NCBI GenBank assembly: GCA_040386535.1
Contig: JAZKFH010000011.1
Location: 1 to 64,000 of the forward strand
Origin: Myxococcota bacterium
Lineage (GTDB): Bacteria > Myxococcota_A > UBA796 > SXON01
Direction: 5' to 3'
Length of the DNA stretch: 64,000 nucleotides
The translations under genes were made by a program, and so were the position numbers. Below the pieces are notes generated by a model. That model had not been told where the DNA came from and ran no database searches. It saw nothing but the letters and a program-made list of their open reading frames with translations. Positions 4,072-57,409 of the stretch are shown here, piece after piece (positions within the stretch are counted from its first letter, which is position 1; the number at the start of each line of letters is the position of its first letter).

Positions 4072-4082
4072 CCTGGACTGAC

Positions 4083-8185: not shown

Positions 8186-8399
8186 TGGGGGCCGGCCGCG
8201 TCACACACGCGGGAGGAGGTGCCAACGGGAGCGACGGGGGCGGGTGTGTTCGGGCCGTAGTCGGTCCACGTCGCGCCCGCCACGAGCACCAGGGCGGAGG
8301 GTGGGGGCGCGACGGGACAACGTGCCGGCGGCCACGCTCGTCGGCGCCGTTCCCTTGGCGTGCTTGCTCGTTCGGAGCCGCCCAGCCATACTAAAGCGC

Positions 8400-18145: not shown

Positions 18146-19008
18146 CACCCTCCCAGGAGGCGCTCCTCCCCTCCGAGGACGATGTCACGTTCTACGAGCA
18201 GCATGGCTATTACACGTCGGCGCGGATCTACGCGGACGACGAGCTGGACGACGCTGTGTACGGCAGCGAGCGGTACTACGCGGGCGAGCGGGACACCGTG
18301 TTCCCCTTGCGGGGTGGCTACCTCGATTGGCGGCCGGAGGACGGCGAGGGGCTGCGCCAGAACGACTACGTGTCCCTCCAGAACGACGAGATCCGGCGGT
18401 TGGTGGAACACCCGCTCCTGGGCGCGATCGCGGCCCGGCTGTGCCGAGAGACCGAGTCCGTCCGCCTGTTCCACGACCAGCTCGTCTACAAGCCCCCCGG
18501 CGAGCTCGAGGGGACAACCATCGTCGGGTGGCATACCGACCGCGCCTATTGGCGGACGTGTACGTCGGATCGGATGCTCACCGCGTGGATTCCGTTCCAC
18601 GCGGTCGACGCTCGTTCGGGGACCCTCACCGTGATCGACGGCAGCCACCGTTGGGAGGGCGCGGAGCGTCTCCACACCTTTCGCGACAAGGATCTCGCGG
18701 GCCTCGCGTCCCGGATGTTCCCCGCGGGTGCGGGCGTGCGGGAGGTGCCGATGACGCTCGCGCGGGGCGCGGTGAGCTTCCATCATTGCCGGCTGATCCA
18801 CGGCAGCTACCCGAACCGCGGCGTTCGCCCGCGCGTCGCGCTGGCGGTCCACATGCAGGACGCCGCCAATCGTTACATTGCTCACTATGATGCCGCGGGA
18901 AATCCAATCCTGCACATCAACGACACGTTGTGCCGGAAGCGCGCGGACGGCGATCCGGACTATGCCGACAACAACATCTGCCCGGTGGTCTGGGCGAGGG
19001 GAGCCTGA
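18136..19008 (+). CDS. Fe(II)/2-oxoglutarate dioxygenase, PhyH family
   Basis: FYEQHGY, YKPP, WHTD (HxD), TAWIP, GSHRW, HGSYPN..R; the GTG start overlaps the kinase 3' end. Confidence 0.92.
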   Translation: MALTPSQEALLPSEDDVTFYEQHGYYTSARIYADDELDDAVYGSERYYAGERDTVFPLRGGYLDWRPEDGEGLRQNDYVSLQNDEIRRLVEHPLLGAIAARLCRETESVRLFHDQLVYKPPGELEGTTIVGWHTDRAYWRTCTSDRMLTAWIPFHAVDARSGTLTVIDGSHRWEGAERLHTFRDKDLAGLASRMFPAGAGVREVPMTLARGAVSFHHCRLIHGSYPNRGVRPRVALAVHMQDAANRYIAHYDAAGNPILHINDTLCRKRADGDPDYADNNICPVVWARGA

Positions 19009-19032: not shown

Positions 19033-22000
19033 ATGGACAAGACGGATCCGACGTTGATCTTCGACGCCCGCCTGAAGGCGGAGCAGGCGTACTGGTTGGG
19101 GCGCCTCCGCCGGGAGCTCGAGGAGACCAACCTCCCCCTGGACTTCAAGCGCTCGAAGATCTACGCACCCAAGCAGGAGTCGCTGCCGTTCGAGATCTCC
19201 GAGGACACGCAGCGGCGCCTGGAGCGTCTCACCGGGGGCTCGCCGCTCCTGACCTACACCGCGCTGCTCGCGGCGCTCCTGGTCGCGCTCCGTCGGTACA
19301 CCGGCAATCACACCGTGGTCGTGGGCAGCCCACCCGCGCGGGTGGACGGGCAGGCCGACCGGGCGAACGTGCTCCCGATCGTGGCGGACCTCGACGACAG
19401 CACCTCGTTCCGCGAGCTGCTCCCCCGGCTTCGTGACACACTGTCCGCGGTGTACGCGCACCAGAACTATCCATTCGGTCGTCTGCTGGAAGACCTCGGG
19501 ATCGTGGCCCCGCCCAGCCGCTGCCCACTTTTTGACGTGGTCGCGTCATCCGCGGCGCTCCACGGTCCCCTGCCGCCCCTGAAGAACGACATCTCCTTCG
19601 TCTTCGTCGGCGCGCCCGGGGCCCTGGCGCTGCAGATCGTGTTCAACGCCCGGGTGCTCCACGCCGACACGGTGGCGGCCTTCGGCCGCAGCGTGTTGTG
19701 CCTCCTCGACGAGATGCTCCGGCGCCCCGCCGATCCGCTGGGCGCGCTCCCGGCGCTCTCCGGCGATCAGGCGCGGGTCCTGGTCGAGGGGTGGAACGGC
19801 ACCCCTGGCGAGACCCGCGATCCCCGGCCGCTCGGCGGCGTCCCGGGGCTGTTCGAGGCCCAGGTCGATCGCACGCCCGATGCCCTGGCCGCGGAACAGG
19901 ACGGGCGCTTCCTCACCTACCGCGTACTGGAGCAGCGCGCGAACCAGCTCGCGCACCACCTTCGTGCCGCCGGTGCGGGGCCCGACGTCCCGATCGGGAT
20001 CGCGATCGCCCCGTCCCTGGACCTCCTCGTGGGCGTGCTCGGGATCCTCAAGGCCGGTGCGGCCTACGTCCCGCTCGACCTCGCCCTGCCGGCGGACCGC
20101 CGCCGGATCGTCGCCGAGGAAGCGGGGGTTCGCATCGTCCTCGTCGCTGGCGAAGGCCCCTCGCCGCTCCCGCCGGGCGTCGCGCGGCTGATCGATCTCG
20201 ACGCCGACCGCGAGGTCATCGCGGCTACCCCCGCCACCCGTATTGCGAGCCCCGATCCGGAGGATCTCGCCTACATCCTGTTCACCTCGGGATCGACGGG
20301 CCGCCCCAAGGGGGTGTGTATGCCACACCGGGCCCTCACCAACCTGCTGGATTGGCAGATCCGGCAATCCACGTGTTCGGAGGGGTCGCGTACGTTGCTG
20401 CGCACCTCCCTCGGTTTTGATGTCAGCTTCCAGGAGATCTTCGCCACCTGGTGCGCCGGGGGCACGCTCGTCGTGGCGTCCGAGGCGATCCGGAGCGACC
20501 CGTGGGGGCTGCCGGCGTTCCTGGAGGCGAAGCAGATCAACCGGGTGTTCCTTCCGTTCATCGGCTTGCAGCAGCTGGCGAAGGGGATGTGCGCCCAGCA
20601 GCGGTTCCCCACGACGCTGCGCGAGGTGATCACCGCGGGCGAGCCGCTGCGCATCACGAGCGCGATCCTCGAGGTGTTCCGACAGCTGGAGGGCTGCTCG
20701 CTGGTGAACCAATATGGTCCCACCGAGACACACGTCGTGACCGCGAATGTACTTGATGGCCCCGCGATCCGTTGGCCGACGCTGCCGTCCATCGGGCGCC
20801 CCATCGCGAACACCCAGGTGTACGTGTTGGATGCGTGGCTGCAGCCGGTGCCCATGGGCGCCGTCGGGGAGCTGTGTGTCGGGGGCGTGGCGGTGGCCCG
20901 GGGGTACGCCGGGCGGCCGGAGCTCACCGAGCGCGCCTTCCCGGTCAATCCCTTCGTTCCGGGGCCAACGGCAGCCGCGGCCCGGCTCTACCGGACCGGG
21001 GATCTCGCGCGTCATCGCCGGAACGGCGAGATCGAGCTCCTCGGGCGTGCCGATCGCCAGGTGAAGATCCGCGGTCACCGGGTGGAGCTGGGCGAGGTCG
21101 AGGCGGCGCTGTGCGTGCATCCCGAGGTCGGCGAGGCGGTGGCGATGGGGACCACCGGTGACGACGGAGACACGCGTCTGGTGGCCTGGGTGGTGCCAGA
21201 GCACGGCCACAGGCCGTCGAGCGCGGCGCTCCGGGCGTACCTCGCCGAGAGGCTCCCCCCCGCGATGATCCCCGCGGCGTTCGTGCGGGTGGACACGCTC
21301 CCGTTGACCTCGACCGGCAAGATCGATCGTGCGGCCCTGCCCGCCCCGGACTGGGCACACCCGGAGATCGAGGATCCGTTCGTCGCGCCCCGGACGCCGG
21401 TCGAGCAGCTCCTCGCCGAGGTCTGGCGGGCGGTCCTGGGGGTCGAGCGCGTGGGGATCGCGGAGAATTTCCTGGAGCTCGGCGGAGACTCGATCCTCGC
21501 GACCCAGGTGGTGGCCCGGGCCCGCGCGGAGGGCGTCGGGATCAGCCTGCGGGACATCTTCCAGCACCAGACGGTCGCGGCGCTGGCCCTGGTCGCAAGC
21601 ACGGCCCGGACCCGTGACGTGACGGCCAGCGGGCCGGCGCCCCTCAGCGCGATCCAACGTTGGTTGCTGGATCGGGAGCTTCCGAACCCGAGCCACTGGA
21701 ACATGAGCGTGTTGTTGCAGACCCGGTTCGCGCACGCGCCCGGGCTCCTCGCGGGCGCCATGCGCGCGGTCGTCGCCCACCACGACGCGCTTCGCCTCCA
21801 GCTCGTCCAGGACGGCGCCGGTTGGCGCCAGGCGGCGGGGCTCTCGGCGCACCAGGCGCTCGCGGTGGTCCACCATGACCTGTCGGCCCTCCCGGCCCAC
21901 GAGCAACCGGGCGTGGTCACGGAGCTCGCCGCCGCCGCACAACGCATGCTCGATCTCCACACCGGGCCGATGGTCGTGATGGCTACGTTCGATCTCGGGG

Positions 22001-23028
22001 CGGAGAGGCCGGGCCGGGTGCTGTTCGCCGCCCACCACCTCGTGATGGACGGGGTGTCGCTCCGGTTCCTCCTGGCCGACGTGGAGACGGCCGCGCGACA
22101 GCTGGCGGGCGGCGAACCGGTGGCGCTGCCGCCGCCGACCGCCCCGTTCCTCCACTGGGCTCGGCTCACCAACGAGCTCGCGCAGTCCCCCCGCCTGCAC
22201 GCGGAGCTCGAGTATTGGGAGCGACGCCCGGCGACCCCTCCCGCGCGCCTCCCGCTGGACCGTCCAGACGGCCCGAACACCGAGGAATCCACACGCACCG
22301 TCGAGCGGTCCCTGGGCGCCGCCGAGACCCGCGCCGTGTTGCACGGCACCCCCGAGGGCATCCGGGACGTCGTCCTCGGCGCGCTGGTGGTCGCCCTGTC
22401 ACGCTTCACCGGATCCCGCGCCGTGCTCGTCGACGTCGAGGGGCACGGCCGCGAAGAGCTGGCCGAGGCGGGAGAGTTCGCGCGCACGGTGGGCTGGTTC
22501 ACGTCGCTCTTTCCGGTCTGCTTCGACATCGGGGACGCCCCCGCGCCGGGCGAGGTGTTGCGCGCCGTTCACGCACGACTCCGCGCGGTTCCCGGCAACG
22601 GCGTCGGCTACGGGCTCCTGCGCCACCTCGCCGGTCCGCAGATCGCGGCACGCCTCGCGGCGTTGCCCGCCGCCGAGGTCAGCTTCAACTATCTCGGGCA
22701 ATTCGACGCGCTGCTCGCCGAGAGCGCGCTGTTCGCCCTGGCTCCGGAGTCCCCCGGCCCGCAGGTCGATCCCCGTGGAGCGCGGACCCACGCGCTCTAC
22801 GTGGAGGGGCGGATCGTGCACGGCCAGCTGCTCCTCTCGTTCCGCTACAGCGCAGCGCTGCACGACGCCGCGACGATGGAGCAGGTGGCGGACCACTGCA
22901 TGGCCGCGCTCGGGGCCATGCGCGCCGATCCGGTCCCCGCGGCGCGCGCGCACACCGCGCGAGTGAGCGCCGCGGATCTGCAGGCCGTCCTCGCGGCGGT
23001 GAGGACCGAGGACCCGAGTGAGCGCTGA
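19033..23028 (+). CDS. NRPS: partial C (interface-like)-A(Pro-like)-T-E
   Basis: N-terminal half C domain lacking HHxxxDG; A code read by eye DVQFIAQVVK; T with GGDSI; E motifs HHLVMDGVS, EGHGRE, RTVGWFT, FNYLGQFD. Confidence 0.95.
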   Translation: MDKTDPTLIFDARLKAEQAYWLGRLRRELEETNLPLDFKRSKIYAPKQESLPFEISEDTQRRLERLTGGSPLLTYTALLAALLVALRRYTGNHTVVVGSPPARVDGQADRANVLPIVADLDDSTSFRELLPRLRDTLSAVYAHQNYPFGRLLEDLGIVAPPSRCPLFDVVASSAALHGPLPPLKNDISFVFVGAPGALALQIVFNARVLHADTVAAFGRSVLCLLDEMLRRPADPLGALPALSGDQARVLVEGWNGTPGETRDPRPLGGVPGLFEAQVDRTPDALAAEQDGRFLTYRVLEQRANQLAHHLRAAGAGPDVPIGIAIAPSLDLLVGVLGILKAGAAYVPLDLALPADRRRIVAEEAGVRIVLVAGEGPSPLPPGVARLIDLDADREVIAATPATRIASPDPEDLAYILFTSGSTGRPKGVCMPHRALTNLLDWQIRQSTCSEGSRTLLRTSLGFDVSFQEIFATWCAGGTLVVASEAIRSDPWGLPAFLEAKQINRVFLPFIGLQQLAKGMCAQQRFPTTLREVITAGEPLRITSAILEVFRQLEGCSLVNQYGPTETHVVTANVLDGPAIRWPTLPSIGRPIANTQVYVLDAWLQPVPMGAVGELCVGGVAVARGYAGRPELTERAFPVNPFVPGPTAAAARLYRTGDLARHRRNGEIELLGRADRQVKIRGHRVELGEVEAALCVHPEVGEAVAMGTTGDDGDTRLVAWVVPEHGHRPSSAALRAYLAERLPPAMIPAAFVRVDTLPLTSTGKIDRAALPAPDWAHPEIEDPFVAPRTPVEQLLAEVWRAVLGVERVGIAENFLELGGDSILATQVVARARAEGVGISLRDIFQHQTVAALALVASTARTRDVTASGPAPLSAIQRWLLDRELPNPSHWNMSVLLQTRFAHAPGLLAGAMRAVVAHHDALRLQLVQDGAGWRQAAGLSAHQALAVVHHDLSALPAHEQPGVVTELAAAAQRMLDLHTGPMVVMATFDLGAERPGRVLFAAHHLVMDGVSLRFLLADVETAARQLAGGEPVALPPPTAPFLHWARLTNELAQSPRLHAELEYWERRPATPPARLPLDRPDGPNTEESTRTVERSLGAAETRAVLHGTPEGIRDVVLGALVVALSRFTGSRAVLVDVEGHGREELAEAGEFARTVGWFTSLFPVCFDIGDAPAPGEVLRAVHARLRAVPGNGVGYGLLRHLAGPQIAARLAALPAAEVSFNYLGQFDALLAESALFALAPESPGPQVDPRGARTHALYVEGRIVHGQLLLSFRYSAALHDAATMEQVADHCMAALGAMRADPVPAARAHTARVSAADLQAVLAAVRTEDPSER

Positions 23029-26000
23029 GAACATCGAGGATCTCCGGGAGCTGTCGGCGATCCAACACGGCACGCTGTTCCACAGCGTGTGGGGGCGGGA
23101 GGTGTATGTCGAGCAGATGGTCTGCACGCTGCGCGGGCCCTTGGATGTGCCGGCCTTCGAGCGGGCCTGGCAGGGGGTGGTCGACGCCCACGACGTGCTC
23201 CGCACCTCGTTCGTCTGGCAGGGCGTGGAGCGCCCGCTCCAGGTGGTGCAACGCCGGGTTGCCCTCGTGCTGGAGCAGCGCGACTGGACCCCCTCCCCAC
23301 CGGGGACTCAAGCCGCGTTGTTGTCCGCCTGGCTCGAAACGGATCGCGCGCGGGGCTTCGATCTCGCCCGGGCCCCGCTCCTGCGCCTCGCCCTGCTGCG
23401 CACCGGCGCCGACGTCCACCACCTCGTCTGGACGCACCACCACATCCTGCTCGATGGGTGGTCGGTCGGGCTCGTGCTGGAGGAGGTGCTCGCGCGGTAC
23501 GAAGGGGAGCGCGGCGGCCCCCCGGCCGAGCTGCGGCGCGGCGTGCCGTTCTCGGCCTACCTCGATTGGATGGAGAGGCGCGGGTCGGGGCCTGCCGAGG
23601 CCTGGTGGCGCCGCACCCTGGCCGGCGCCGGCGAAGCGATCCCGCTCGGAGGGGACGCGGGTTGCCGACCGTTCGGGAGCGGGCCCGTCTCCGAGCAGCG
23701 CCTCACGCTCACCCCGGACGAGACCGCGGCTCTCCACGCCGCCGCGCGCCGACACCGGGTGACACTCGGGACCCTCGCGCACGGCGCCTGGGCGATGCTC
23801 CTGGCGCGGTACAGCGGGGAGGACGAGTGTGTCTTCGGCACGGTCACGTCCACCCGGCCGCCAGACCTGCCGGGCTCGGCCTCGGTGGTCGGGCCGTGCT
23901 TCAACACGCTCCCGGTCCGGATTGCCATGCCCCCGGGGTTGCCGGTGGGGAGTTGGCTCCAGGGGCTGCAGACGGCGCTCGTCGAGCTCCGGCAGCACGA
24001 CCACGTCGCGCTCGCGGACATCCACGCGTGGAGCGGGATTCCCCGCGGCGCCCGGCTGTTCGAGAGCCTCCTGGCCTTCGAGAACTACCCGCTGGCCACC
24101 ACCCTCGGGGGAACGGGATCCAGCCTCGCGTTCACCGATGTCCGCTGGATTGGGAGCACCAACTACCCGCTCGCGGCGATGGTCGTGCCGCGGGCCGAGA
24201 CCACGTTGTGCATCCAACACGACGTGTCCCGGTACTCCGCCGAGACCGCGCGCGCGATGTTGGGCCACTACCGTGCGCTCCTCCTCGGAATGACCCAGCC
24301 GGGCAACATTCCCCTGCGCGCGCTGACGCCTCTCTCCGCCGAGGAGCGGGAGCTTCTCCTGGTGGGCTGGAACCCCACCCGCACGGAGGCTCCGGCGGTG
24401 GGATCGCTGCACCGCCTCTTCGCCGCGCAGGTGGCAAGGACCCCAGCGGCCGTGGCCGTCACCCACTGCGGCGCCGCGCTCTCCTACGGAGAGCTCGACC
24501 GACGTGCCAACCGACTGGCATGGCGGCTCCGCGCCCGCGGGGTGGGGCCGGAGGTCCGCGTCGGCCTGCTCGTGGCGCGCGGCCTCGACCTGCTCGTGGG
24601 CGTATTGGCCATCGCGGAGGCGGGAGGCGCCTTCGTGCCGCTCGATCCGGACCATCCGCCCGAGCGCGTCGGGTGGATCGTTCGGGATGCCCAGCTGGCC
24701 CTCGTCGTGACACAAGAGAATCTGTCCGGACGGCTGCCACCCGAGGTGGATCGAATCGGGTTCGACCCGGACGACACTGCCTCGCCGGGCCCCCTCCCGA
24801 GTGGGGTCGGGCCCGATCACCTGGCGTACGTCCTGTACACCTCGGGCTCGACCGGGGTTCCGAAGGGGGTGATGATCCCCCATCGGGGCCTGGTGAACTA
24901 CCTGGCCTGGGCGGCGCGGGCGTACGCGGTCGCCGAGGGCGTCGGGGCGCCGGTCCACACCTCCGTCGCGTTCGACCTCACGTTCACCGCGCTGCTGGTA
25001 CCGCTGTGCGCGGGACGACGGGTCGATCTGCTCGTCGAGGAGCGTGGCGTGGGCGCCCTCGCCGCGGTTCTGCGGGCGCCCTCCGACTACAGCCTCGTCA
25101 AGCTCACCCCGAGCCACGTCGAGGTCCTCGCGGGCCACGCACTGACGCCACCTTCCGCGCCGGCAACGCGCGCCTTTGTCGTGGGTGGGGAGAGCCTGCG
25201 CCCGGAGCACGTCCGCGCGTTGCGCGCCGCCGCGCCCGGCGCCGTCGTGTACAACGAATACGGACCGACCGAAGCCGTGGTGGGCTGCAGTGTGCACACG
25301 GTGACCGACCTCGTGGACGAGGGGGGCCCGCTGCCGATCGGGCGCCCGATCGACAACACCCGCCTCTACATCCTCGATCGCGACTTTGCCCCCGTGCCCG
25401 TCGGGGTGATCGGGGAGCTGTTCATCGGGGGAGCCGGCCTGGCGCGGGGCTACCTCGGGCAGCCCGGACGCACGGCGGAACGGTTCGTTCCGGATCCGTT
25501 CGGGGACCAGACCGGCGCACGCCTCTACCGGACCGGGGACCGCGCGCGCCGTCGCGTCGACGGGGACATCGAGTTCATCGGCCGCGTGGACGAGCAGGTC
25601 AAGGTGCGCGGCCATCGCGTCGAGCCCGCCGAGATCGAGGCCGCGCTGACACGCCACCCGGCGGTCGCCCAGGCGGTGGTCGTCACGCGCTCCCGGCTCG
25701 AGGGGGCGCATGAGCTGGTGGCCTGTTGGGTGGCGGCAGGGCCGGACGCGCCCGGCCCAGGAGAGCTCCGGAAGTACCTCCTCGACACGCTCCCCGAGCC
25801 GATGGTCCCCGCGCGGTTCGTGCGCGTGGAGCACCTTCCGCTCACGCCGAACGGCAAGGTCGATCGCGCCGCGCTCGCGGCGGCCGGCGGGGAGGAAGTG
25901 GCCGCCGCGAGCGCCCCCTTCGTCGCCCCGCGGGGCCCGACCGAGGAGAGCCTCGCCCGGATCTGGGCCGAGGTGCTGGGGGTCGAGCGGATCGGCCGTG

Positions 26001-29000
26001 ACGATGACTTCTTCGACCTCGGCGGGCACTCCTTGTCGGCGCTCCGGGCCGTGTCACGGATCCGCGGCGCGCTCCACGCGGGGATGGCGCTCTCGTCCCT
26101 GTTCACGGCGCGAACCCTCGCGGCGCTCGCCGCCGTGGTCGACGCCGAGCGGCGCGGCGCGTCCTCTCCCTTCGCGGGTGGCACGACGGACGGTCCGGTA
26201 CCGCGGCGGGCGGAACGCGGCGCCGCCCCCGCCTCCTTGGCGCAGGAGCGGCTGTGGGTGCTCGACCAGCTCCATCCGGGCGTGTACCACGTGTCCGCGG
26301 CGGCGCGGCTCGAGGGCGTGCTCGATGTGGGAGCCCTCGAGCAGGCCGTGCGGGCGGTGGTCGCTCGGCACGACATCCTCCGCGCGCGCTTCGTCGTCTC
26401 GGACGGCGCGTTGGTGCAGGTGAGCGGTCCGGCATCCGGGGCCGCGGCGTTCGTGCTCGAGCGGATCCCGCTCGGCGGCCAGACGCCCGACGCGCGGCGG
26501 GAGGAGGCGCGCGACGCGCTCACGCGGGCCCTGTGCCGCCCCTTCGACCTCGGAACGGGCCCGCTGCTCCGGGCCGGCATCGTGACCGTCGACATACACG
26601 AGCACGAGCTGCTCCTCGCGATGCATCACCTCGTCTGCGACGGGTGGTCCCGCGATGTGTTGGTTCACGAGCTCGCGCTCGCCTACACCGCCGTGCTCCG
26701 CGCCGACCCCGTGCCGCCGCCCGCGCTGCCGGTGCAGTACGCCGACTACGCCGCCTGGCAGCGCGCGCGTGTGGACGCGACGGAGGCCGCGCAGCTCGCC
26801 TGGTGGGTGGCGCAGCTCGAAGGGATCCCCCCGCTGGAGCTGCCGATCGCGCGCCCCCGCCAGCCCGAGCGGCGCTTTCGCGGCGCCCAGCACCCGATCG
26901 TGCTGTCGACGGAGAGCGTTCGTGCCCTCTCCACGTTCTGTCGGGCGCACCGGGAGACCCCCGTCACCGTGCTCCTGTCGGCGTTCGTCGCGCTGCTGCA
27001 CCGCTACACCGGGCAGGACGACATCGGCGTCGGCACCTCCGTCGCGGACCGCGGTCGCCCCGAGCTCGACGCGCTCATCGGCCCCTTCCTCAATACGATC
27101 GTCGTGCGCGGTCGCCCCCGCGCGTCGCTGCCCTTCCGCGCGCTGGCCCAGGCGATCGGCGTGACCCTTCGCGACGCCCAGGCCCACGCGGACATCCCGT
27201 TCGGGCGGGTGGTGCGCGGGCTCGGCGCCGGCCAGGATCCTCGGCGGAACCCCGTCTTCCAGGCCCTGTTCGACCTCCAGGACGCGCCCGACGAGCGGAT
27301 CGAGCTGCCCGGCGTGCGGCTGTTCCCCCTGCGCCTCGACACCGGCACCGCGAAGCTCGACCTGGCCTTGCACCTCTGGGCGTCGCGCGAGGGTTTCCAC
27401 GGGTGGATCGAGTACGACACCGACCTGTTCGAGGGCGTGGCCATCGCGCGCATGGCCTCACACTTCGACCACCTCCTCCGATCCATCGGGGGAGGCGAAG
27501 CCCCGATCGGCGCGCTGCCCATCCTGCCGCCGGCGGAGCGCCGGCAGGTGCTCGTCACCTGGAATGGCCCGAGCGTGGCGTACGCGGGCCCGGAAGCGCT
27601 CCACCGGCTCGTGGAGGCCCAGGTGGTGCGGTCGCCAGACGCGATCGCCGTCGTGTTCGAAGGCGATCGAGTGACGTACCGCGAGCTGGACCGACGCGCG
27701 GATCGGCTGGCTCGGCGGCTCGTGAACGCCGGCGTGGGGCCGGAGTCGATCGTGGGGGTCCACGTCGACCGTTCGCTGGCCCTGGTCGTGGCCCTGCTCG
27801 CCATCCTCAAGGCGGGTGGTGCCTGGCTGCCGCTGGATCCCGACCTGCCGGCGGAGAGGCGAGCGTCCATGACCGCCGACGCCGCCCCTACGATCGTGTT
27901 GCTGGCGGACGGCGCGGACGCGGCCCCGTTCGAGACCGCCACGTTGTACGTGAGCGCCGCCGGGGACTCCGCCACGGAGGGGAGCTCGCCCCTCGTCGCC
28001 ACCTCCCCGACGAACCTAGCCTACGTGATCTACACCTCCGGCTCCACCGGGAAGCCGAAGGGCGTGCAGATCCAGCACGACGGCATCTGCAATCGGCTCG
28101 CGTGGATGCAGGCGGAGTATGGGCTCACTCCCGCGGATCGGGTGCTGCACAAGACCCCCATCGGCTTCGACGTGTCCGTCTGGGAGCTGTTCTGGCCGCT
28201 GATCACGGGCGCGCGGCTGGTCCTGGCCCGGCCCGGGGGGCAGCGGGACCCGCGGTATCTCGCCCAGCTCATCCGCGACGAGGGCGTCACGACCGTCCAC
28301 TTCGTGCCCTCCCTGCTGGCGGCGTTCGTGGAGGAGCCCGCCCTCTCGGACTGCGTGTCCCTCGCGCGGGTGTTCTGCAGCGGCGAGGCGCTCTCGCCCG
28401 ACGTTGCGGCGCGCTTCGCCGCGCGCTCTGAGGCGGCGCTCCACAACCTGTACGGGCCGACCGAGGCCTCCGTCGACGTCACGGCGTGGACCTGGCGGCC
28501 GGGCTCAACCCGCGTGCCCATCGGGTCTCCCATCGCCAACATCCGGATCTACATCCTGGATCCGCGCCTGGAGCCGGTCCCGATCGGCGTGCCGGGGGAG
28601 CTGTACATCGGCGGGATCGGCGTGGCCCGCGGGTACCTCGGGCGGCCCGGGTTGACGGCCGATGCCTTCGTCCCCGACCCGTTCGCGCCGTCGGTCGGCG
28701 GTCGGCTCTACCGCACCGGAGACCGCGCACGCCACCTGCAGGACGGCGCCATCGAGTTCCTCGGGCGCAACGACGACCAGGTCAAGATCCGCGGGGTGCG
28801 CATCGAGCCCGCCGAGATCGAGATGGAGCTCCGCCGCCACGCGGCGGTGGGCGCGTGCGCGGTCGTCGCCCGGCCGCACCCCGCGGGAGGGCTCCGCCTC
28901 ACGGCCTACGTCGTTCCGCGCGCGGGCACGATGCCCCCGGCGGACGTGCTGCGTCGTCACCTCGCCGCGCGGCTGCCCGAAGCGATGATCCCGACCGGGT

Positions 29001-32000
29001 TCGTCTCGGTCGCCACCCTCCCGCGCCAGCCCTCCGGCAAGGTCGACCGCCGCGCCCTCCTCGCGCTCCCCGCCGAGCAGGCGTTCGTCGCGCGCGCCGC
29101 TGTGGTGACGCCGCCGCGAAGCGCGTCGGAGCACGGCCTCGCGCGGATCTGGTGCGCGGTCCTCGGTCTGGACCACGTTGGGGTGCACGACAACTTCTTC
29201 GCCCTGGGAGGGGATTCGATCCGTGGCATCGCCGTCGTGGCGCAGGCGCGGGCCGCGGGGTTCGACGTGACGCTGCGCCGCTTGTTCAACGAGCCGACGA
29301 TCGCGGCGTTGGCGAGCTTCGCGCCGCTCCCCGACACCGCGCCGCTCCCCGACACCGCGCCGCTCCTGGACGGCGCGGAATTCCCGGCTCCAACCGCGCC
29401 GTTCGCCCTCCTCCGCCCGGCCGACCGCGCGCGTGTCCCCGCCGGCATCGAGGACGCCTATCCGCTCACCGCGCTGCAGCTCGGCATGGTGTTCCACGCG
29501 TCGCTGGCGTCCGGCGCGCGCGTCTACCGCAACGTCGACTCGGTCCACCTGCGGGCCCCGTGGGCGCCGGAGCTCCTCCGCGGCGCCGTGCAGAGGCTGG
29601 TCGATCGGCACGGGATCCTGCGCACCTCCTTCGAGGTCCACACCTTCGAGGACGCCGTGCAGCTCGTACACGAGCGGGTCGAGGCGCCCCTGGTCATCGA
29701 GGATCTGCGCGGGCTCACGGCGGAGCAGCAAGAGGCCCGGCTGGACCGATGGTTGCGCGAGCAGGAAGCGCGGGCGTTCGCGCTCGGGGTGCCGCCGCTG
29801 TTCGGCGCGTACGTCCACCGGCGGACGGACGAGACGTTCCAGTTCACGCTGCCCCACCACCACGCCATCCTGGACGGCTGGAGCGTGAGCGCGCTCTGCG
29901 CCGAGCTGATGACGGACTACCTCTCCGCCGTCCGCGGGGAGGCGGCCCCCGCGCCGCCGATCGGTGCGACGTTCCGGGACTACGTCGCCCTCGAGCGCGC
30001 TGCGGTCGACTCCGCGGAGCACCAGGACTACTGGCACACGCTCCTGGCCGATGCGCCCGCGTGTGTCCTGCCCGCCGCCCCGGCCGACCGTGACGAGGGT
30101 TCCGGCGTCGCGCCCGAGCATCGCGAGCACCGGGTGGGCCTGGGGGCCCCGCTTGCCAGCGCCCTTGCAGGCGTGGCGGCAGCCCAGGGCGTGCCGCTCA
30201 AGAGTGTGCTCCTCGCCGCGCACCTCCACGTGGTCCGCCTCCTGACCCACCAGTCCGACGTCGTGACGGGCCTCATCACCGACGGTCGCCCCGAGCTGCC
30301 GGGTGCGGAGCGTGTTCTGGGCCTGTTCCTCAACACGGCGCCGTTCCGCCTGCGCCTCGGCGGGGGAACGTGGGCGGAGCTGGTGAACGCGGTGTTCCAC
30401 GCGGAGCGGGAGGCGCTCCCGTACCGGCGCTTCCCGTTGGCCCTAATGGGGAGCGGGCGGCGGCCCTTGTTCGACACGGCCTTCAACTACACCCACTTTC
30501 ACGTGCTCGCGCCGCTGTCGGGCCTCGACGGGCTCGAGGTCCTCGAGCGGCGCTCGTTCGCGCTCCAGACCTTCCGCTTGATGGCGAACTTCGATCTGGA
30601 CGCCAAGGAGCACACGCTGACGCTCGTCCTCGGCTACGACGCGTGCGCGCTCTCCGACGTGCAGGTCGAGGACGTCGCGGCCTGCTACGCGCGTACGCTG
30701 GCGGAGATCGCGGGGGATCCGCACGGGCAATACGCCGCGACGGGCACCGGAGCGGTCGGCGACGAGGCGCCGGGAACCGCCTCGTCGCGTGCCCCCGCCG
30801 CGTCGGGGCATCGGCAGCCCACTGCCGCGCCGCCCCGCACCCCGATCGAGCGCGTCCTCGCAGGGATCTGGTCGGACCTGCTCCACGTCGATCCGATCGG
30901 GATCGACGAGGACTTCTTCGAGCTCGGAGGCGACTCCCTCGTCGCGATCCGCGTGGTGTCCCGGCTGCGGGATCGGGCCCGGATCGAGCTGTCCCCGAGC
31001 GCGTTGTTCGAGGCGCCCACCATCGCCGCGCTGGCGGCGATGGTGGAGGCAGGCCGCCCCGGAACGGCCTCGCGGTCGATCTCCGTGGTCCCTCACGACG
31101 GGCCGACTGGGCTCTCCCTGGGGCAGCAACCGATGTTCCTGCTGGACACCGCGCTTAGGGGGCTGCCGCTCTTCCACGCGCCGGTGCGGCTCCACGTCGC
31201 CGGGCTGCTGGACATCGCGGCCCTACGACGGAGCTTCGCGCACGTGGCGGAGCGGCACGGGGTGTTGCGCACGACGTTCACGATGCTCGACGGCCGTCCC
31301 GTGCAGCGCGTGCTCCCCGCGATCGAGTTGGAGCTCCCGTGCGTGGATCTGCGCGCCCTCACGGAGCGCGCGCGCGCCGTGGAGGCGGAGCGGCTGGCCT
31401 GGGCCGACGCGGCTCGGCCCTTCGATTTGGCGGGGGGCCCGCCGATCCGCGCGAGCCTGCTCCAGCTGGGGGACCAGGAGCACGTGCTGCTCCTCACGCT
31501 CCACCACCTCGTCAGTGACGGTTGGTCGATGGGCGTGCTCGCGGGCGAGGTGGCCGCGGCGTACGCGGCGTTCGTGTCGGGCGCGCCACCGGCCCTCCCG
31601 CGCCTCCCGCTGCAGTATCGGGACTACGTCGCCTGGCAGGCGGAGCAACTGAAGAACGGCGGGTTCGACGCCGCGCTCGCCTGGTGGATGGACGAGCTGG
31701 CCGCGCCGCTGCCGCCGCTCGCCCTCGGGGGAGCTGTCCCTTCGCCGCGAATGGGCGGCTTCCGACCCGTGGCGATCCCGGTCCAGGTGGGGAGGGAGAC
31801 GACCGAGGGGCTCACCCGCGTGGGTCGGCAGGAGGGCGCCAGCCTGTTCATGGTGCTGCTGGCCGCGTTCGACGTTGTCCTCCATGCCGTCGCCGGCGCA
31901 CGCGACATCCGCGTGGGTACGCTCGTCGCGAATCGGACGTCCTCCGAAACCGAAGGCCTGATCGGGCTTTTCGTCAACACCCTCCTCCTCCGCGTGGATC

Positions 32001-32551
32001 TGTCGGGGGATCCGTCGTTTCGGGAGATCCTCCGCGCCGTCCGCGTGCGCACCCTGGCCGCGTACGATCGGCAGGACGTGCCCTTCGAGGCCGTGGTGCA
32101 CGCGCTCGAGGCCCGCGCTTCCGCGAGCGGTGGCGGCCTCGATCGCGCGACGCTCTTCCAGGCCATGTTCATCCTTCAGAGCGCGCCCATCCCCACGCTC
32201 GACCTGCCCGGCCTCGTCGTGGAGAGTTGGGAGCGCGACGCGCCGCCGCTGATGACATCCTTCGACGTGAAGCTGGTCCTGGAGGAGGTCGCCGGTGGGC
32301 TCGTCGGTTCGCTCGTCTATCGGGAGGCGTTCGTGGAGGAGACCGCCATGACGACGTTGCTGGGCCTGTTCGAGGTCCTGTTGGAAGACGTATCGGGAGG
32401 ATCGGACGAGCAACTGTCGACGTGGCGCCGGTACGCCCGGGCGGTGAATACGACAGAGTTTGCGTCCCCCCTTGACGACGGCCAGCCTGCGGCGGATCCT
32501 CCTCGGGCCCCTGTTTCCAGCGGGCCAAAGAACGTAGGAGGTACCTCATGA
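23018..32551 (+). CDS. NRPS: C-A(Asn)-T-C-A(Ser)-T-C-T-C, no thioesterase
   Basis: C motifs HHHILLDG, HHLVCDG, HHHAILDG, HHLVSDG; A codes DLTKVGEVGK and DVWHFSLVDK; T motifs GGHSL, GGDSI, GGDSL. Confidence 0.95.
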   Translation: MSAENIEDLRELSAIQHGTLFHSVWGREVYVEQMVCTLRGPLDVPAFERAWQGVVDAHDVLRTSFVWQGVERPLQVVQRRVALVLEQRDWTPSPPGTQAALLSAWLETDRARGFDLARAPLLRLALLRTGADVHHLVWTHHHILLDGWSVGLVLEEVLARYEGERGGPPAELRRGVPFSAYLDWMERRGSGPAEAWWRRTLAGAGEAIPLGGDAGCRPFGSGPVSEQRLTLTPDETAALHAAARRHRVTLGTLAHGAWAMLLARYSGEDECVFGTVTSTRPPDLPGSASVVGPCFNTLPVRIAMPPGLPVGSWLQGLQTALVELRQHDHVALADIHAWSGIPRGARLFESLLAFENYPLATTLGGTGSSLAFTDVRWIGSTNYPLAAMVVPRAETTLCIQHDVSRYSAETARAMLGHYRALLLGMTQPGNIPLRALTPLSAEERELLLVGWNPTRTEAPAVGSLHRLFAAQVARTPAAVAVTHCGAALSYGELDRRANRLAWRLRARGVGPEVRVGLLVARGLDLLVGVLAIAEAGGAFVPLDPDHPPERVGWIVRDAQLALVVTQENLSGRLPPEVDRIGFDPDDTASPGPLPSGVGPDHLAYVLYTSGSTGVPKGVMIPHRGLVNYLAWAARAYAVAEGVGAPVHTSVAFDLTFTALLVPLCAGRRVDLLVEERGVGALAAVLRAPSDYSLVKLTPSHVEVLAGHALTPPSAPATRAFVVGGESLRPEHVRALRAAAPGAVVYNEYGPTEAVVGCSVHTVTDLVDEGGPLPIGRPIDNTRLYILDRDFAPVPVGVIGELFIGGAGLARGYLGQPGRTAERFVPDPFGDQTGARLYRTGDRARRRVDGDIEFIGRVDEQVKVRGHRVEPAEIEAALTRHPAVAQAVVVTRSRLEGAHELVACWVAAGPDAPGPGELRKYLLDTLPEPMVPARFVRVEHLPLTPNGKVDRAALAAAGGEEVAAASAPFVAPRGPTEESLARIWAEVLGVERIGRDDDFFDLGGHSLSALRAVSRIRGALHAGMALSSLFTARTLAALAAVVDAERRGASSPFAGGTTDGPVPRRAERGAAPASLAQERLWVLDQLHPGVYHVSAAARLEGVLDVGALEQAVRAVVARHDILRARFVVSDGALVQVSGPASGAAAFVLERIPLGGQTPDARREEARDALTRALCRPFDLGTGPLLRAGIVTVDIHEHELLLAMHHLVCDGWSRDVLVHELALAYTAVLRADPVPPPALPVQYADYAAWQRARVDATEAAQLAWWVAQLEGIPPLELPIARPRQPERRFRGAQHPIVLSTESVRALSTFCRAHRETPVTVLLSAFVALLHRYTGQDDIGVGTSVADRGRPELDALIGPFLNTIVVRGRPRASLPFRALAQAIGVTLRDAQAHADIPFGRVVRGLGAGQDPRRNPVFQALFDLQDAPDERIELPGVRLFPLRLDTGTAKLDLALHLWASREGFHGWIEYDTDLFEGVAIARMASHFDHLLRSIGGGEAPIGALPILPPAERRQVLVTWNGPSVAYAGPEALHRLVEAQVVRSPDAIAVVFEGDRVTYRELDRRADRLARRLVNAGVGPESIVGVHVDRSLALVVALLAILKAGGAWLPLDPDLPAERRASMTADAAPTIVLLADGADAAPFETATLYVSAAGDSATEGSSPLVATSPTNLAYVIYTSGSTGKPKGVQIQHDGICNRLAWMQAEYGLTPADRVLHKTPIGFDVSVWELFWPLITGARLVLARPGGQRDPRYLAQLIRDEGVTTVHFVPSLLAAFVEEPALSDCVSLARVFCSGEALSPDVAARFAARSEAALHNLYGPTEASVDVTAWTWRPGSTRVPIGSPIANIRIYILDPRLEPVPIGVPGELYIGGIGVARGYLGRPGLTADAFVPDPFAPSVGGRLYRTGDRARHLQDGAIEFLGRNDDQVKIRGVRIEPAEIEMELRRHAAVGACAVVARPHPAGGLRLTAYVVPRAGTMPPADVLRRHLAARLPEAMIPTGFVSVATLPRQPSGKVDRRALLALPAEQAFVARAAVVTPPRSASEHGLARIWCAVLGLDHVGVHDNFFALGGDSIRGIAVVAQARAAGFDVTLRRLFNEPTIAALASFAPLPDTAPLPDTAPLLDGAEFPAPTAPFALLRPADRARVPAGIEDAYPLTALQLGMVFHASLASGARVYRNVDSVHLRAPWAPELLRGAVQRLVDRHGILRTSFEVHTFEDAVQLVHERVEAPLVIEDLRGLTAEQQEARLDRWLREQEARAFALGVPPLFGAYVHRRTDETFQFTLPHHHAILDGWSVSALCAELMTDYLSAVRGEAAPAPPIGATFRDYVALERAAVDSAEHQDYWHTLLADAPACVLPAAPADRDEGSGVAPEHREHRVGLGAPLASALAGVAAAQGVPLKSVLLAAHLHVVRLLTHQSDVVTGLITDGRPELPGAERVLGLFLNTAPFRLRLGGGTWAELVNAVFHAEREALPYRRFPLALMGSGRRPLFDTAFNYTHFHVLAPLSGLDGLEVLERRSFALQTFRLMANFDLDAKEHTLTLVLGYDACALSDVQVEDVAACYARTLAEIAGDPHGQYAATGTGAVGDEAPGTASSRAPAASGHRQPTAAPPRTPIERVLAGIWSDLLHVDPIGIDEDFFELGGDSLVAIRVVSRLRDRARIELSPSALFEAPTIAALAAMVEAGRPGTASRSISVVPHDGPTGLSLGQQPMFLLDTALRGLPLFHAPVRLHVAGLLDIAALRRSFAHVAERHGVLRTTFTMLDGRPVQRVLPAIELELPCVDLRALTERARAVEAERLAWADAARPFDLAGGPPIRASLLQLGDQEHVLLLTLHHLVSDGWSMGVLAGEVAAAYAAFVSGAPPALPRLPLQYRDYVAWQAEQLKNGGFDAALAWWMDELAAPLPPLALGGAVPSPRMGGFRPVAIPVQVGRETTEGLTRVGRQEGASLFMVLLAAFDVVLHAVAGARDIRVGTLVANRTSSETEGLIGLFVNTLLLRVDLSGDPSFREILRAVRVRTLAAYDRQDVPFEAVVHALEARASASGGGLDRATLFQAMFILQSAPIPTLDLPGLVVESWERDAPPLMTSFDVKLVLEEVAGGLVGSLVYREAFVEETAMTTLLGLFEVLLEDVSGGSDEQLSTWRRYARAVNTTEFASPLDDGQPAADPPRAPVSSGPKNVGGTS

Positions 32552-32727
32552 GCAACTTGGACGTGCGCCTGGATCCCGCCAACTTCACGAAGCTGAATCC
32601 GCGCGAGCTGGACGAGCTGAACGCGACCGTGAACGCCGAGCTTCTCAAGAATCCGGCGCTGCAGAAGTCGCTTCGTGGCAAGGTGGACGCCTTCTCCGCG
32701 CACCTGAAGAAGACCAAGGAGGGCTGA
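32548..32727 (+). CDS. 59-aa small protein of unknown function (below the ORF-track cutoff)
   Basis: AGGAGG RBS at 32536-32541, ATGA overlap with the NRPS stop, GC3-rich codons: MSNLDVRLDPANFTKLNPRELDELNATVNAELLKNPALQKSLRGKVDAFSAHLKKTKEG. Confidence 0.8.
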   Translation: MSNLDVRLDPANFTKLNPRELDELNATVNAELLKNPALQKSLRGKVDAFSAHLKKTKEG

Positions 32728-32757: not shown

Positions 32758-34545
32758 ATGTCGCGAGACCCCGATGACTCGCGCCTGGCTCCACCGGGGC
32801 CGTTTCACGAGTCGTGCTACGTGGCGGCCCGGGACGGTACCCGGCTCGCCGTCTTCCTTTTTCGTCCGGCCGAATCCGGTCGCCCGGTCGCCCGGCCACT
32901 GCCCGTGGTCTGGACGCACAACCGGTACCACGCTCAGGGGGCGGCGCCCGAGCGGGTCCGGGCCTGGGAAGAGCACCTTCCCTGGCTGAACCCCGCCGCG
33001 TCGCAGCCCCCGGTCTCGTCGGTGTCGCTGGACGACACCCCGTGGTTGGGGGAGCTGGTGGACAACGGCTACGTCGTCGCGATCGTGGACGCGCGGGGGA
33101 GCGGCGCGTCGTTCGGGACGCGCTCCGGCCCGCTGTCACCGGACGAGGCGCGGGACGCCTACGACCTGACCGAGTGGTTCGCGTCACAGCCGTGGTGCGA
33201 CGGCGCCGTCGGCATGTTCGGGCGCTCGTACATGGGCACGAACCAGATGTTCGCCGCGGCCGCTCCGTCGCCGCACCTGCGCGCCGTCTTCCCCGAGATG
33301 GCCCTGTTCGACCTCTACACCTTCGTGTACTCCGGCGGCGTGTTCCGCCATGACTTCGCCCGGAGCTGGTCCCGGGACGTGGCGCGTCGTGACCGGGAGG
33401 ATCCCGCGGTGCGCGTCGGCGGAGATCCGTCCGGGGCGTTGCTGGCCGAGGCGCGCGCGGTGCACGCGTTCAACCGGGACACCTACGGGATGTTCGCGAA
33501 CCTGCCGCACCGTGACTCGACCGATCTCGAGTCCGGGGAACGCTCGTACGACCTGCGGAACCCCGCGTACGACGGCCACGCGTTGCGAACGCCGAAGATC
33601 CCGGTGTACCTCCTCGCGGGTTGGTACGACCCCTTCGTCCGGGACGCCTTCGCCTGGTTCGTGAACACGCCCGGCGTCCGACGGCTGGTGGTGGGGCCCT
33701 GGGCTCACACCGGGAACCTGGGCTTCGACCTCGCCGCCGAGCACCTGCGTTGGTACGACCGCTGGCTCAAGGGCGCGCCCGATCCCATCGAGGACGAAGC
33801 CCCGCTTCATTTCTATGTCATCGGCGCCCCGGAGGGCGAGCGTTGGCGCGCCGCGTGGTCGTGGCCCCTCCCCGAGGCGCGGCCCCTCGACCTCTACCTG
33901 TGTGCAGGCCCGACGGGGACCGTTCGTTCGTGCAACGACGGGCTGTTGGGCTCCGCCCCGCCGAAAGGTGAGGCCGTGGACGAGTACCGGGTCGACTACA
34001 CGGCCACCTCCGGCACGGCCAGCCGCTGGACCAACGCCTACGGAGGCCCCTTCGGCTACCGGGATCTGCTGTCCAACGACGAAAAGGGCCTCACGTACAC
34101 GACCGGTGCGCTCGAGGCGGATCTCAACGTCGTCGGACATCCCGTCGCGCACGTGTGGGTGTCCTCGTCGGCCGAGGACCTCGACCTCTTCGCCTTTCTC
34201 GAGGAAGTGGGCCCCGACGGCGCCGTCCGCTACGCCTCGGAGGGGGTGCTGCGTGCGTCCCACCGCGCGCTGGCGACGCCCCCCTTCCTCCTCCCCGGCG
34301 GTGTCCCGTTCCATCGGAGCGGGGCGGGGGATGTCGCGCCCCTGCCGCGCCACCCGGTGGAGCTCGTGTTCGACCTGCACCCGATCGCGCGCCGCTTCCC
34401 GCGGGGGCACCGGGTTCGCCTGACACTGACCTGCGCGGACCGTGACAACGCCCTCACCCCCGAGTCTCCGGAACCTCCCCTGGTTCGGATCCATCGGGGC
34501 GAGCAGACGCCGACGCGCCTGGTCCTGCCGGTGGTGCCGGGCTGA
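32758..34545 (+). CDS. CocE/NonD family serine hydrolase (peptidase S15-like)
   Basis: RDGTRLA, DARGSGASFG, GRSYMG nucleophile, GWYD, GPWAH, C-terminal PepX-like domain; GGAGG RBS. Confidence 0.93.
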   Translation: MSRDPDDSRLAPPGPFHESCYVAARDGTRLAVFLFRPAESGRPVARPLPVVWTHNRYHAQGAAPERVRAWEEHLPWLNPAASQPPVSSVSLDDTPWLGELVDNGYVVAIVDARGSGASFGTRSGPLSPDEARDAYDLTEWFASQPWCDGAVGMFGRSYMGTNQMFAAAAPSPHLRAVFPEMALFDLYTFVYSGGVFRHDFARSWSRDVARRDREDPAVRVGGDPSGALLAEARAVHAFNRDTYGMFANLPHRDSTDLESGERSYDLRNPAYDGHALRTPKIPVYLLAGWYDPFVRDAFAWFVNTPGVRRLVVGPWAHTGNLGFDLAAEHLRWYDRWLKGAPDPIEDEAPLHFYVIGAPEGERWRAAWSWPLPEARPLDLYLCAGPTGTVRSCNDGLLGSAPPKGEAVDEYRVDYTATSGTASRWTNAYGGPFGYRDLLSNDEKGLTYTTGALEADLNVVGHPVAHVWVSSSAEDLDLFAFLEEVGPDGAVRYASEGVLRASHRALATPPFLLPGGVPFHRSGAGDVAPLPRHPVELVFDLHPIARRFPRGHRVRLTLTCADRDNALTPESPEPPLVRIHRGEQTPTRLVLPVVPG

Positions 34546-35329
34546 CGGGCGCGTCGGAAGCATACCGGCGTGCAATCCGAAACAACGCCCATCGGAGCTG
34601 GAGGGCAGCGGCGCCCTCCCGCGCGAGCTGGGGCGCACGCGCGGCCAACATCCGCGGCGTCATCCACCACTGGTTGACGGCGATGCACGTCTCCAGGTAC
34701 CGGGCGCGATGCCACCACCCGTACGGGATGAACAGGATGTCCCCTGGCTCGAGCACGGCATCAAAGTCCGGAGGGGGGCGCGGCCCCGGCTGGGCGTCCG
34801 GATAGTCCCAGGTGGCCGAGCACGAGTACCACGTCTGTCGGCACTGATCGGCGGCGGGCACGACGGACGGTGCATAGAGCTCGACCCGCTTGCGGCCGCG
34901 CACCTGCACCAGGAAATTGTGGGCGAAATCGCAGTGTAGCTGCGAAAGCCACCCCGGCGGCCCGATCCAGTAGTTCGTGTGGGAGAGCGCGCGGATCGCG
35001 CCGGTCGGAGGGAAGCGGGTGTGCTCCTTCAACGCGGGGATGTGCCTTCCCAGGTCGACCGTACCGAGGAAGCCGGCATCCAGCGCGTCCCCGTGCCCCA
35101 GTTGCTCGAGAAACGCGGCGAGCGTGGTGTCACGCGTGGCGAAGCCGTCCGAAACGCTCATGCCACCGAGGGAGACCGTGACGGGCAACGCGCCGTGTGT
35201 GCCAGCCAACCAATCCAGGGACCAGAGGGAGGCCGACGGCCAGTCCTTGGCGCCGCCCTCCAGGACGAAGGGGCGTCCACGTTTCGTTTGCACCATCGGG
35301 TTCGAAGCTCCTGCGAGGGACGTGCGCAT
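34454..35329 (-). CDS. JmjC/cupin-like (Cupin_8) 2OG oxygenase; start may be ATG 35296
   Basis: WIGPPG, LHCD (HxD), NFLVQVRGRKRV, LEPGDILFIPYGWWH. Confidence 0.88.
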   Translation of the reverse strand: MRTSLAGASNPMVQTKRGRPFVLEGGAKDWPSASLWSLDWLAGTHGALPVTVSLGGMSVSDGFATRDTTLAAFLEQLGHGDALDAGFLGTVDLGRHIPALKEHTRFPPTGAIRALSHTNYWIGPPGWLSQLHCDFAHNFLVQVRGRKRVELYAPSVVPAADQCRQTWYSCSATWDYPDAQPGPRPPPDFDAVLEPGDILFIPYGWWHRARYLETCIAVNQWWMTPRMLAARAPQLAREGAAALQLRWALFRIARRYASDAPVSPAPPAGPGASASARPDGSEPGEVPETRG

Positions 35330-35392
35330 GAAGGCATGCTCATGACCCTGTGCCGACAGGCATGATAATCGAGCGAGACGACGGGAGACTCG

Positions 35393-35599
35393 ATGCCGGA
35401 CGCGACCTACGCCGTGGTCATCAACCACGAGGAGCAGTACTCGGTCTGGGCCGCCGACCGGGAGCCTCCCCCCGGATGGCGCGTCGTCGGCGTGACGGGG
35501 ACGAAGGACGAGTGTCTCGCCCACATCGAACGGGTGTGGACCGACATGCGGCCGGCGAGCCTTCGCGGGGCGGCGTCGGGGTTCAATTCGGCGGAGTGA
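35393..35599 (+). CDS. mbtH: MbtH-like protein
   Basis: [33 protein letters not shown] signature. Confidence 0.97.
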
Positions 35600-36807: not shown

Positions 36808-36880
36808 GGACGAAGGACGAGTGTTCCGCCCACATCGCCCGGGTGTGGACCGACATGCGGCCGGCGCGCCTTCGCGGGGC
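36808..36880 (+). repeat. Partial duplicate of the mbtH 3' half (direct repeat of 35499-35571)
   Basis: 68/73 nt identical by manual alignment; encodes [23 protein letters not shown]. Confidence 0.9.
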
Positions 36881-36964
36881 CGAGGCGGGATTTCTCCCGA
36901 AGGCTGTTGACCCCGGGGAGGACCGCAAGGAGGCGTCGTGTGACGACAAGCTACCATCCCCCCA

Positions 36965-56865: not shown

Positions 56866-57074
56866 GACACCCCCGCCGAGCGCGCGTCGTACGGGCGCAG
56901 CATGGAGATGTCGGTGAGGCGCACGTGCGCGCGGGACACCCCGTCGGGGGCGATCAGCTCCACCACGTCGTCCTCGATGGTGCCCACCCGGCCCACGTGG
57001 ACATGGCCCTGGGTCGTGTAGACGTACACCCGCAGGTTGCGGTAGGTCCGCTCGAGCAGCTCGCGGACGTTCAC
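56862..57074 (-). CDS. Small Sm/LSm-like beta-barrel hypothetical protein
   Basis: Helix followed by VYVYTTQGHVHVGRVGTIEDDVVEL..AHVRLTDI; coupled on both sides. Confidence 0.7.
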   Translation of the reverse strand: MNVRELLERTYRNLRVYVYTTQGHVHVGRVGTIEDDVVELIAPDGVSRAHVRLTDISMLRPYDARSAGVS

Positions 57075-57400: not shown

Positions 57401-57409
57401 GGGGGTCCC

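Follow-up and report, generated by a model that had tools for sequence, protein, structure and literature searches.

A 64,000-nucleotide stretch of a Myxococcota bacterium genome (GenBank assembly GCA_040386535.1, contig JAZKFH010000011.1, positions 1 to 64,000 of the forward strand; hereafter the window) carries a predicted lipopeptide nonribosomal peptide synthetase (NRPS) cluster whose last synthetase ends in a bare condensation (C) domain, and directly behind that domain lies a gene for a protein of 59 amino acids (aa), P0001. Judged from sequence, P0001 represents a new small-protein family within a new variant of the terminal-C-releasing lipopeptide NRPSs, with two readable genomic contexts, the window and Nannocystis exedens DSM 71. 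We propose, at a probability of about 0.38, that the small protein is a non-catalytic partner that sits on the remodeled acceptor face of the terminal C domain and supports release of the product. The features on which this proposal turns are listed here, with A and T denoting adenylation and thiolation domains.

23018..32551, + strand: NRPS of 3177 aa, C-A(Asn code)-T-C-A(Ser code)-T-C-T-C, with no thioesterase (TE) or reductase
31100..32425, + strand: terminal C domain of the LCL type, with HHLVSDG intact and PMF in place of the RLW gate motif
32536..32541, + strand: Shine-Dalgarno sequence AGGAGG, 6 nt 5' of the small-gene ATG
32548..32727, + strand: small-protein gene, P0001, 59 aa with the C-terminal end HLKKTKEG; founder of an unnamed family
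32758..34545, + strand: CocE/NonD hydrolase (S15, X-Pro dipeptidyl-peptidase fold), 30 nt 3' of the small gene, with its own GGAGG

The small gene and its family

By its codon statistics, the small gene is a real open reading frame (ORF). Its ATG (32548-32550) overlaps the TGA (32549-32551) of the 3177-aa NRPS in an ATGA junction, and the ribosome-binding site that an earlier note on this DNA had pointed out is indeed present ahead of it. GC content at the three codon positions is 0.61, 0.34, and 0.90, and when codons are scored with a model trained on 2,738 of the genome's long genes, the small gene's frame receives 0.58 per codon and the other five frames receive -0.14 to -1.90. A score at least this high is reached by 11 of the 10,167 genome ORFs of 50-70 aa, 2 of which also have an AGGAGG. 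Codon adaptation (0.66) resembles that of ten tested cluster genes (0.62-0.70) and not that of two flanking genes (0.76 and 0.78), so the gene likely arrived together with the NRPS cluster. Because a second ATGA overlap occurs in the same operon, at the junction of the first NRPS and the lyase gene, the overlap appears to be the ordinary junction style of this operon and not special to the small gene. Among the sequencing runs, a contig of X1, which may be the source of the assembly, spans the locus unchanged, and the contigs of X2-X5 do not cover the gene. The possibility that the gene is a frameshifted NRPS tail was rejected, since its homologs are free-standing.

An unfiltered phmmer run against 1.84 billion representatives gave 7 hits. 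One was the query, four were short relatives (56-59 aa, 38-52% identity), and the remaining two, very long proteins (titin, MBG), were dropped because they held no scored stretch. A profile built from the phmmer relatives and the N. exedens homolog gave 15 clusters, of which 14 have 54-61 aa and the remaining one, extended at its N-terminus, has 86 aa; a 373-aa cluster mate, P0145, was rejected as a fusion because it is a carbamoyl-phosphate synthase small chain, hence a clustering artifact. Across the 15 members, L4, D9, and E31 are invariant, E22, P36, and Q39 are kept in 14, hydrophobic residues recur with heptad or helical spacing, and conservation spans the full length. None of the invariant residues is a Lys, Ser, Thr, or Cys. 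N-termini vary (MS, ML, MQ), running 1-5 residues ahead of the invariant Leu, and a Lys lies within the last 8 residues of all 15 members. Column 54 is Lys in 12 of them (Q, T, or V in the other 3), and column 43 holds K in 13 members and R in P0001. Such conservation is the pattern of a binding surface rather than of a catalytic site.

The helical 59-aa product ending in HLKKTKEG that the earlier note described is borne out by the translation and by an AlphaFold2 model with two short and two long helices (mean pLDDT 81.6, pTM 0.47), the helical part beginning at residue 3. Searches with this short helical model were uninformative: Foldseek against the PDB gave no match at E<=0.001, and the best VIA-align match reached Z 4.7, with none at 5 or above. 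Pfam and NCBIfam hold no family for P0001, and the best library scores of the family as a whole (Pfam E 0.011, NCBIfam E 0.017, PDB E 0.33) are scattered, with none significant. A single-sequence word search with P0001 returned the query alone, the ESM Atlas gave no usable match for P0001 or P0133, and a plasmid tblastn search with P0132 found no match. A literature search, in which subscription papers were thinly covered and supplements excluded, found no paper on the family or on either cluster. On these sequence and model comparisons, P0001 founds a rare family, so far without a name, of small proteins predicted to be all-helical.

The family was also compared with known classes of small protein. 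The earlier note had judged the product to be neither MbtH-like nor T-like, and both judgments hold at the level of sequence: PF03621 matches neither P0001 nor 12 relatives (a true MbtH matches at 5e-21), P0001 lacks Trp, and a true MbtH is encoded separately at 35393; nor is there any PP-binding match in P0001 or its relatives, or a conserved Ser motif (GGxS). On the four-helix fold of carrier proteins, the model (pTM 0.47) and the fold searches weigh neither way. Compared with precursors of peptides that are made on the ribosome and modified after translation (RiPPs) of the Nif11/NHLP type, the family has no Pfam or NCBIfam leader match and no variable core, and no RiPP maturase occurs among the annotated genes of either cluster. 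An NRPS docking domain is not indicated either, as 14 of the 15 family clusters are free proteins of 54-61 aa and not NRPS or polyketide synthase (PKS) termini, and no credible fusion to a long protein appeared in the length-unrestricted search or the fetched loci. Residues 11-52 resemble TacA/DUF1778 (PF08681; Pfam E 0.045 for one member, PDB E 0.53), and hhalign placed the family on template positions 44-81 of 84 with a probability of 14% and a score of 19.5 against a shuffle maximum of 17.2. This is not taken as homology; the likeness is at the level of an amphipathic-helix pattern, the ribbon-helix-helix half is absent, and no GNAT toxin gene is adjacent.

Terminal C domains, a second cluster, and distribution

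The closest named relative of the window's CocE protein is found in N. exedens DSM 71 (57% identity), and the same genome encodes a 33% identical homolog of the small protein. It lies in an FAAL-NRPS-PKS cluster with a terminal C domain of the same clade, CocE, PhyH, and an MbtH 62% identical to the window's. The order is FAAL-ACP-C-A-MT-T, C-A-T, KS-AT-ACP-aminotransferase-C, C*-A-T-C-A-T-C, PhyH, a heme-oxygenase-like enzyme, a methyltransferase, and a convergent CocE gene. The final NRPS again ends in a bare C domain (HHIIGDG), and the sole TE of the cluster is a type II TE gene. The small gene heads a divergent unit with this type II TE gene and MbtH, next to the FAAL enzyme at the cluster edge and about 24 kb from the terminal C domain, and a 10-of-12 match to a sigma-70 promoter stands immediately upstream of it (0.1 expected). 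Given that distance and the promoter-like site, translational coupling is not conserved: the ATGA overlap on which the earlier note's coupling claim drew is present in the window, at the stop of the terminal-C NRPS, and the N. exedens homolog is not coupled to an NRPS. What is conserved over the two contexts is membership of the cluster; the gene was thus found beside similar NRPSs, as the earlier note's proposal called for, in the one other readable context. The PhyH, heme-oxygenase-like diiron, and methyltransferase genes 3' of the N. exedens terminal C domain (L167:7084-9678) form an uncharacterized tailoring set in a cultured strain.

Readable contexts are available for 2 of the 15 family clusters, with a third available as a hint and none for the other 12. 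The hint is that the homolog P0138 and the close CocE protein P0012 both have a longest contig of 4833 bp (0.014 such matches expected; metadata only), which hints that P0138 is co-located with P0012. The contigs that encode P0132, P0139, P0146, and P0138 measure 37, 23, 7, and 4.8 kb.

The two terminal C domains are sisters in trees of 54 C domains (Shimodaira-Hasegawa-like approximate likelihood ratio test, SH-aLRT, 98) and of 27 (SH-aLRT 97), which are quick trees without bootstrap, and they lie apart from the high-GC internal C domains of their respective clusters. The other CocE-linked genomes contribute no C domain to this clade. Both members keep HHxxxDG, and neither is followed by a TE, a reductase (R), or a downstream module. 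They share 24 positions that are rare in the other 24 aligned domains, and the PTDRP, TAKF, and EYxTDLF motifs are partly lost in both. The R-L-W of the first helix has become P-M-F in the window and S-M-F in N. exedens; the 23 other C domains that have a residue at this site retain W in 22 cases and R in 14. In FscG C3, the channel for the acceptor is gated by R2577, and W2579 makes contact with the acceptor peptidyl carrier protein (PCP) (PMC8097023), and these residues were placed on the terminal C domains through an alignment to 7KVW. The acceptor side of the terminal C domain thus appears remodeled in a manner that fits an acceptor other than a carrier protein, without identifying that acceptor.

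The CocE clade also occurs in clusters without the small gene. Among 160 CocE loci examined, 10 have C-domain matches, four of these with a full FAAL (N. exedens included) and three with an FAAL fragment at the locus edge; the small-protein profile found no small gene in any of these loci. Nine named genomes have NRPS-linked CocE loci, and the small gene is present in one of them, N. exedens (G498 was searched with a single protein only, the others with the profile). CocE is found in 1 of 154 genomes of the window's own order (at E<=1e-40), its own genome, and in 0 of 138 genomes of another family; Sorangium clusters also have close CocE proteins (WP_437785442.1, WP_437909554.1). P0001 searched against its own phylum found 1 of 401 genomes, again its own, and searches around N. 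exedens found N. exedens itself each time (1 of 301 and 1 of 73); further sets gave 0 of 6, 0 of 31, 0 of 201, 0 of 201, and 0 of 5. As the family was not found beyond N. exedens in these broader samples, it appears rare and patchy. Matches in 6 of 401 Acidobacteriota genomes (L169-L174; E 1e-4 to 1e-3) were rejected because all are the same alanyl-tRNA synthetase helix, a label taken from the recognizable sequence; they probably reflect a shared amphipathic pattern. The checked C-ended proteins of a Blastocatellia genome were likewise rejected as true ends, as a further module follows.

The CocE survey also turned up other arrangements. In five actinobacterial loci CocE is fused at the NRPS N-terminus as an assembly-line domain, arranged as CocE-C-A-T-TE-like in L015:9439-15081 and as CocE-C...T in L016, L018, L022, and L023. 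In L084:4943-11818 and L028:1-11851 the NRPS ends in T and CocE follows directly or closely, which suggests that in some clusters CocE may work in trans, either for release or for deacylation.

Proposed role and competing readings

In the mechanism that we favor, the small protein would be made and bound to the terminal C domain, docking on its remodeled acceptor face where a downstream module would otherwise be; the docked protein would support release of the lipopeptide onto an amine, presumably by aminolysis, and CocE would act on the acyl end of the product. In glidonin, the terminal C domain adds putrescine and is stabilized by its downstream domains (PMC10587159). By analogy, stabilizing domains of that type are missing here and the small protein could be their stand-in. 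The assignment of CocE to the lipid end draws on its company: the CocE clade also occurs in clusters that lack the small gene, mostly with an FAAL, which argues for action at the lipid end rather than for the trimming of a protein conjugate that the earlier note had proposed, and we consider lipid-end trimming the more likely activity. The A codes of the two clusters predict different peptides, both with a Pro-type code at module 2, which would fit the X-Pro peptidase fold of CocE. As the peptides differ and the C clade, the small protein, and the CocE clade are all kept, the conserved element would seem to be the termination step, and the three together look like a termination cassette.

A non-covalent partner of the C domain is ranked first because of the binding-surface type of conservation, the lack of a fixed nucleophile, and the analogy with the stability of the glidonin terminal C domain; a covalent acceptor and a partner of another enzyme follow on a level, then a self-protection protein, and last a passenger. 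The covalent reading, which develops the earlier note's idea of a ribosomal acceptor, holds that this terminal-C clade offloads FAAL-initiated lipopeptides onto a ribosomal mini-protein serving as a stand-in for the last carrier and acylated at its N-terminal amine or at a Lys of its C-terminal tail, the conjugate perhaps being cut later by a hydrolase; this would be an NRPS-protein hybrid mode of release in myxobacteria. We regard it as unlikely. In its favor, neither cluster offers a TE, an R domain, or a downstream module, the genome scan showed only one other C-domain locus, the gate is remodeled in a conserved C clade, and no other conserved gene of the clusters is an unknown. Each of the proteins has an alpha-amine and a Lys near its C-terminus, and the leading position of the N. 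exedens gene behind a promoter-like site is compatible with stoichiometric demand. Lys-rich C-termini are, however, common in small bacterial proteins, and the positions that might be modified are not fixed: columns 43 and 54 both vary, the N-termini differ, and the predicted helix begins at residue 3. Occurrence of the CocE clade without the small protein further argues against it.

Equally unlikely is that the small protein has a partner other than the terminal C domain, namely CocE, PhyH, FAAL/ACP, or the type II TE, or that it acts as a regulator of the cluster. The 30 nt separating it from CocE, which is the best-conserved shared enzyme, the hint from P0138 and P0012, and its place upstream of the type II TE and MbtH genes in N. 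exedens all favor such a role; close CocE proteins in 8 other named genomes without the small gene, and the lack of any CocE fusion among 120 stored CocE proteins, speak against it. A self-protection protein that binds the product or the product's target is slightly less probable again. The small protein is acidic-faced and cluster-linked and weakly resembles the toxin-binding half of TacA antitoxins, but that likeness is an amphipathic pattern without the DNA-binding half, and the different peptides predicted for the two clusters weaken the product-binding idea of the earlier note. We would give very little credence to a passenger gene without a pathway role: its position within the cluster is not conserved, yet two distant clusters that differ in peptide and in gene order both retain it, and it was not found in sampled genomes lacking such clusters.

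Several observations weigh against the proposed docking on the terminal C domain. Loss of RLW would also be expected of a C domain that takes a small amine without a protein partner. Support for the clade in both quick trees is by SH-aLRT only, the composition of the N. exedens domain is flagged as odd, and the identity of the terminal pair (38-39%) is no higher than that to some internal LCL domains. The N. exedens gene, far from its terminal C domain at the head of the type II TE/MbtH unit, could serve another enzyme. The genomic case comprises two readable contexts and one indirect hint, and the genome searches beyond the window's own genome are samples, with a single-protein query for G498. 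Co-folding of the terminal C domain (alignment A4) with the small protein (A3) scored 0.03 against a mark of 0.32, which gives no verdict and is counted neither way.

The host cluster and known systems

The domain order of the window cluster was read from Pfam and NCBIfam scans plus motifs. Its other features are as follows.

7544..8185, - strand: 4'-phosphopantetheinyl transferase
7881..13598, + strand: FAAL-ACP-C-A-T initiation enzyme, likely start near 8400
13595..15118, + strand: MIO aromatic amino acid lyase/aminomutase, closest to histidine ammonia-lyase
15152..16666, + strand: stand-alone C domain
16682..18145, + strand: unannotated ORF with a presumed kinase-like HGD motif, no family match
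18136..19008, + strand: PhyH dioxygenase, start approximate (ORF 17416-19008)
19033..23028, + strand: NRPS, half-C - A(Pro-type code) - T - E-type domain
34454..35524, - strand: Cupin_8/JmjC oxygenase ORF
35393..35599, + strand: MbtH-like protein (PF03621)

The A-domain codes read, in order, unknown, Pro-type, Asn, and Ser, on what we take to be their substrate meanings. The first code, DACQLALLAK, resembles beta-amino-acid codes, and the MIO enzyme of the NRPS operon (13595-15118) could work as an aminomutase that provides a beta-amino acid, perhaps beta-histidine. The kinase-like ORF and PhyH (16682-19008, + strand), upstream of the NRPS with the Asn module, are reminiscent of what is presumably the route to phospho-hydroxyasparagine in the calcium-dependent antibiotic (CDA). 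At about 29450-31050 (+ strand), 3' of the Ser module, lies a C-T module without an A domain; its C domain forms a long branch in a DCL-like group with no E domain before it, and is a candidate dehydrating or dual C domain, or part of a trans-loaded module. A partial second MbtH-like copy (36810-36893, + strand) sits within a frame that looks unrelated; it shares 82% identity with residues 37-64 of the MbtH at 35393 and may be a scar left by duplication at the edge of the cluster. Elsewhere in the window, a phage-baseplate/VgrG-like gene (Phage_base_V, Gp5 trimer) adjoins a 2187-aa DUF6519 beta-helix protein (55630-63973, - strand) in a likely contractile injection system locus, and positions 2001-6000 have a GC content of 0.64 against about 0.73 and hold three ORFs, one of them alpha/beta hydrolase-like.

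A new candidate family, linked to a terminal-C clade that is itself distinct, is defined by the small gene. It is of a kind that gene callers and cluster cloners can miss, and its absence could explain failed heterologous expression of such clusters. A binding partner, if that is what the small protein is, would be a new release co-factor; an acceptor would represent a new NRPS-to-protein modification route, useful for site-specific lipopeptide ligation. Both readings are directly testable in N. exedens DSM 71 (proteins PCC68475.1 and WP_218163382.1), which is cultured.

Among known systems, NRPS docking/COM domains, PEARL scaffolds, and selidamides likewise involve short helical interaction elements, or peptides of ribosomal origin to which acyl or aminoacyl groups are added; the genes described here are free-standing, with no RiPP maturase and no leader/core pattern. 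NRPS C-domain-mediated lipidation of ribosomal proteins has reportedly been observed in actinomycetes, although the literature search did not find that report. The likeness to TacA/DUF1778 is confined to its C-terminal helices and comes without the ribbon-helix-helix half or a GNAT toxin neighbor. MbtH-like proteins are likewise small stand-alone NRPS accessories (about 60-70 aa) that act by binding, as is proposed here, and to our knowledge few other such families exist; the small protein differs in its predicted all-helical fold, its lack of Trp, and its lack of any Pfam match, and both clusters carry a separate true MbtH. The terminal C domains share the fold family and catalytic motif of FscG C3 (7KVW), but the gate Arg and the PCP-contact Trp are replaced in both (PMC8097023). 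With glidonin module 13, too, a lipopeptide NRPS ends catalysis with a C domain whose HHxxxDG is intact; there the C domain is followed by A*-T domains, whereas here it is bare, falls in its own clade, and is accompanied by a separate small protein of a kind that the accessible text on glidonin does not describe (PMC10587159).

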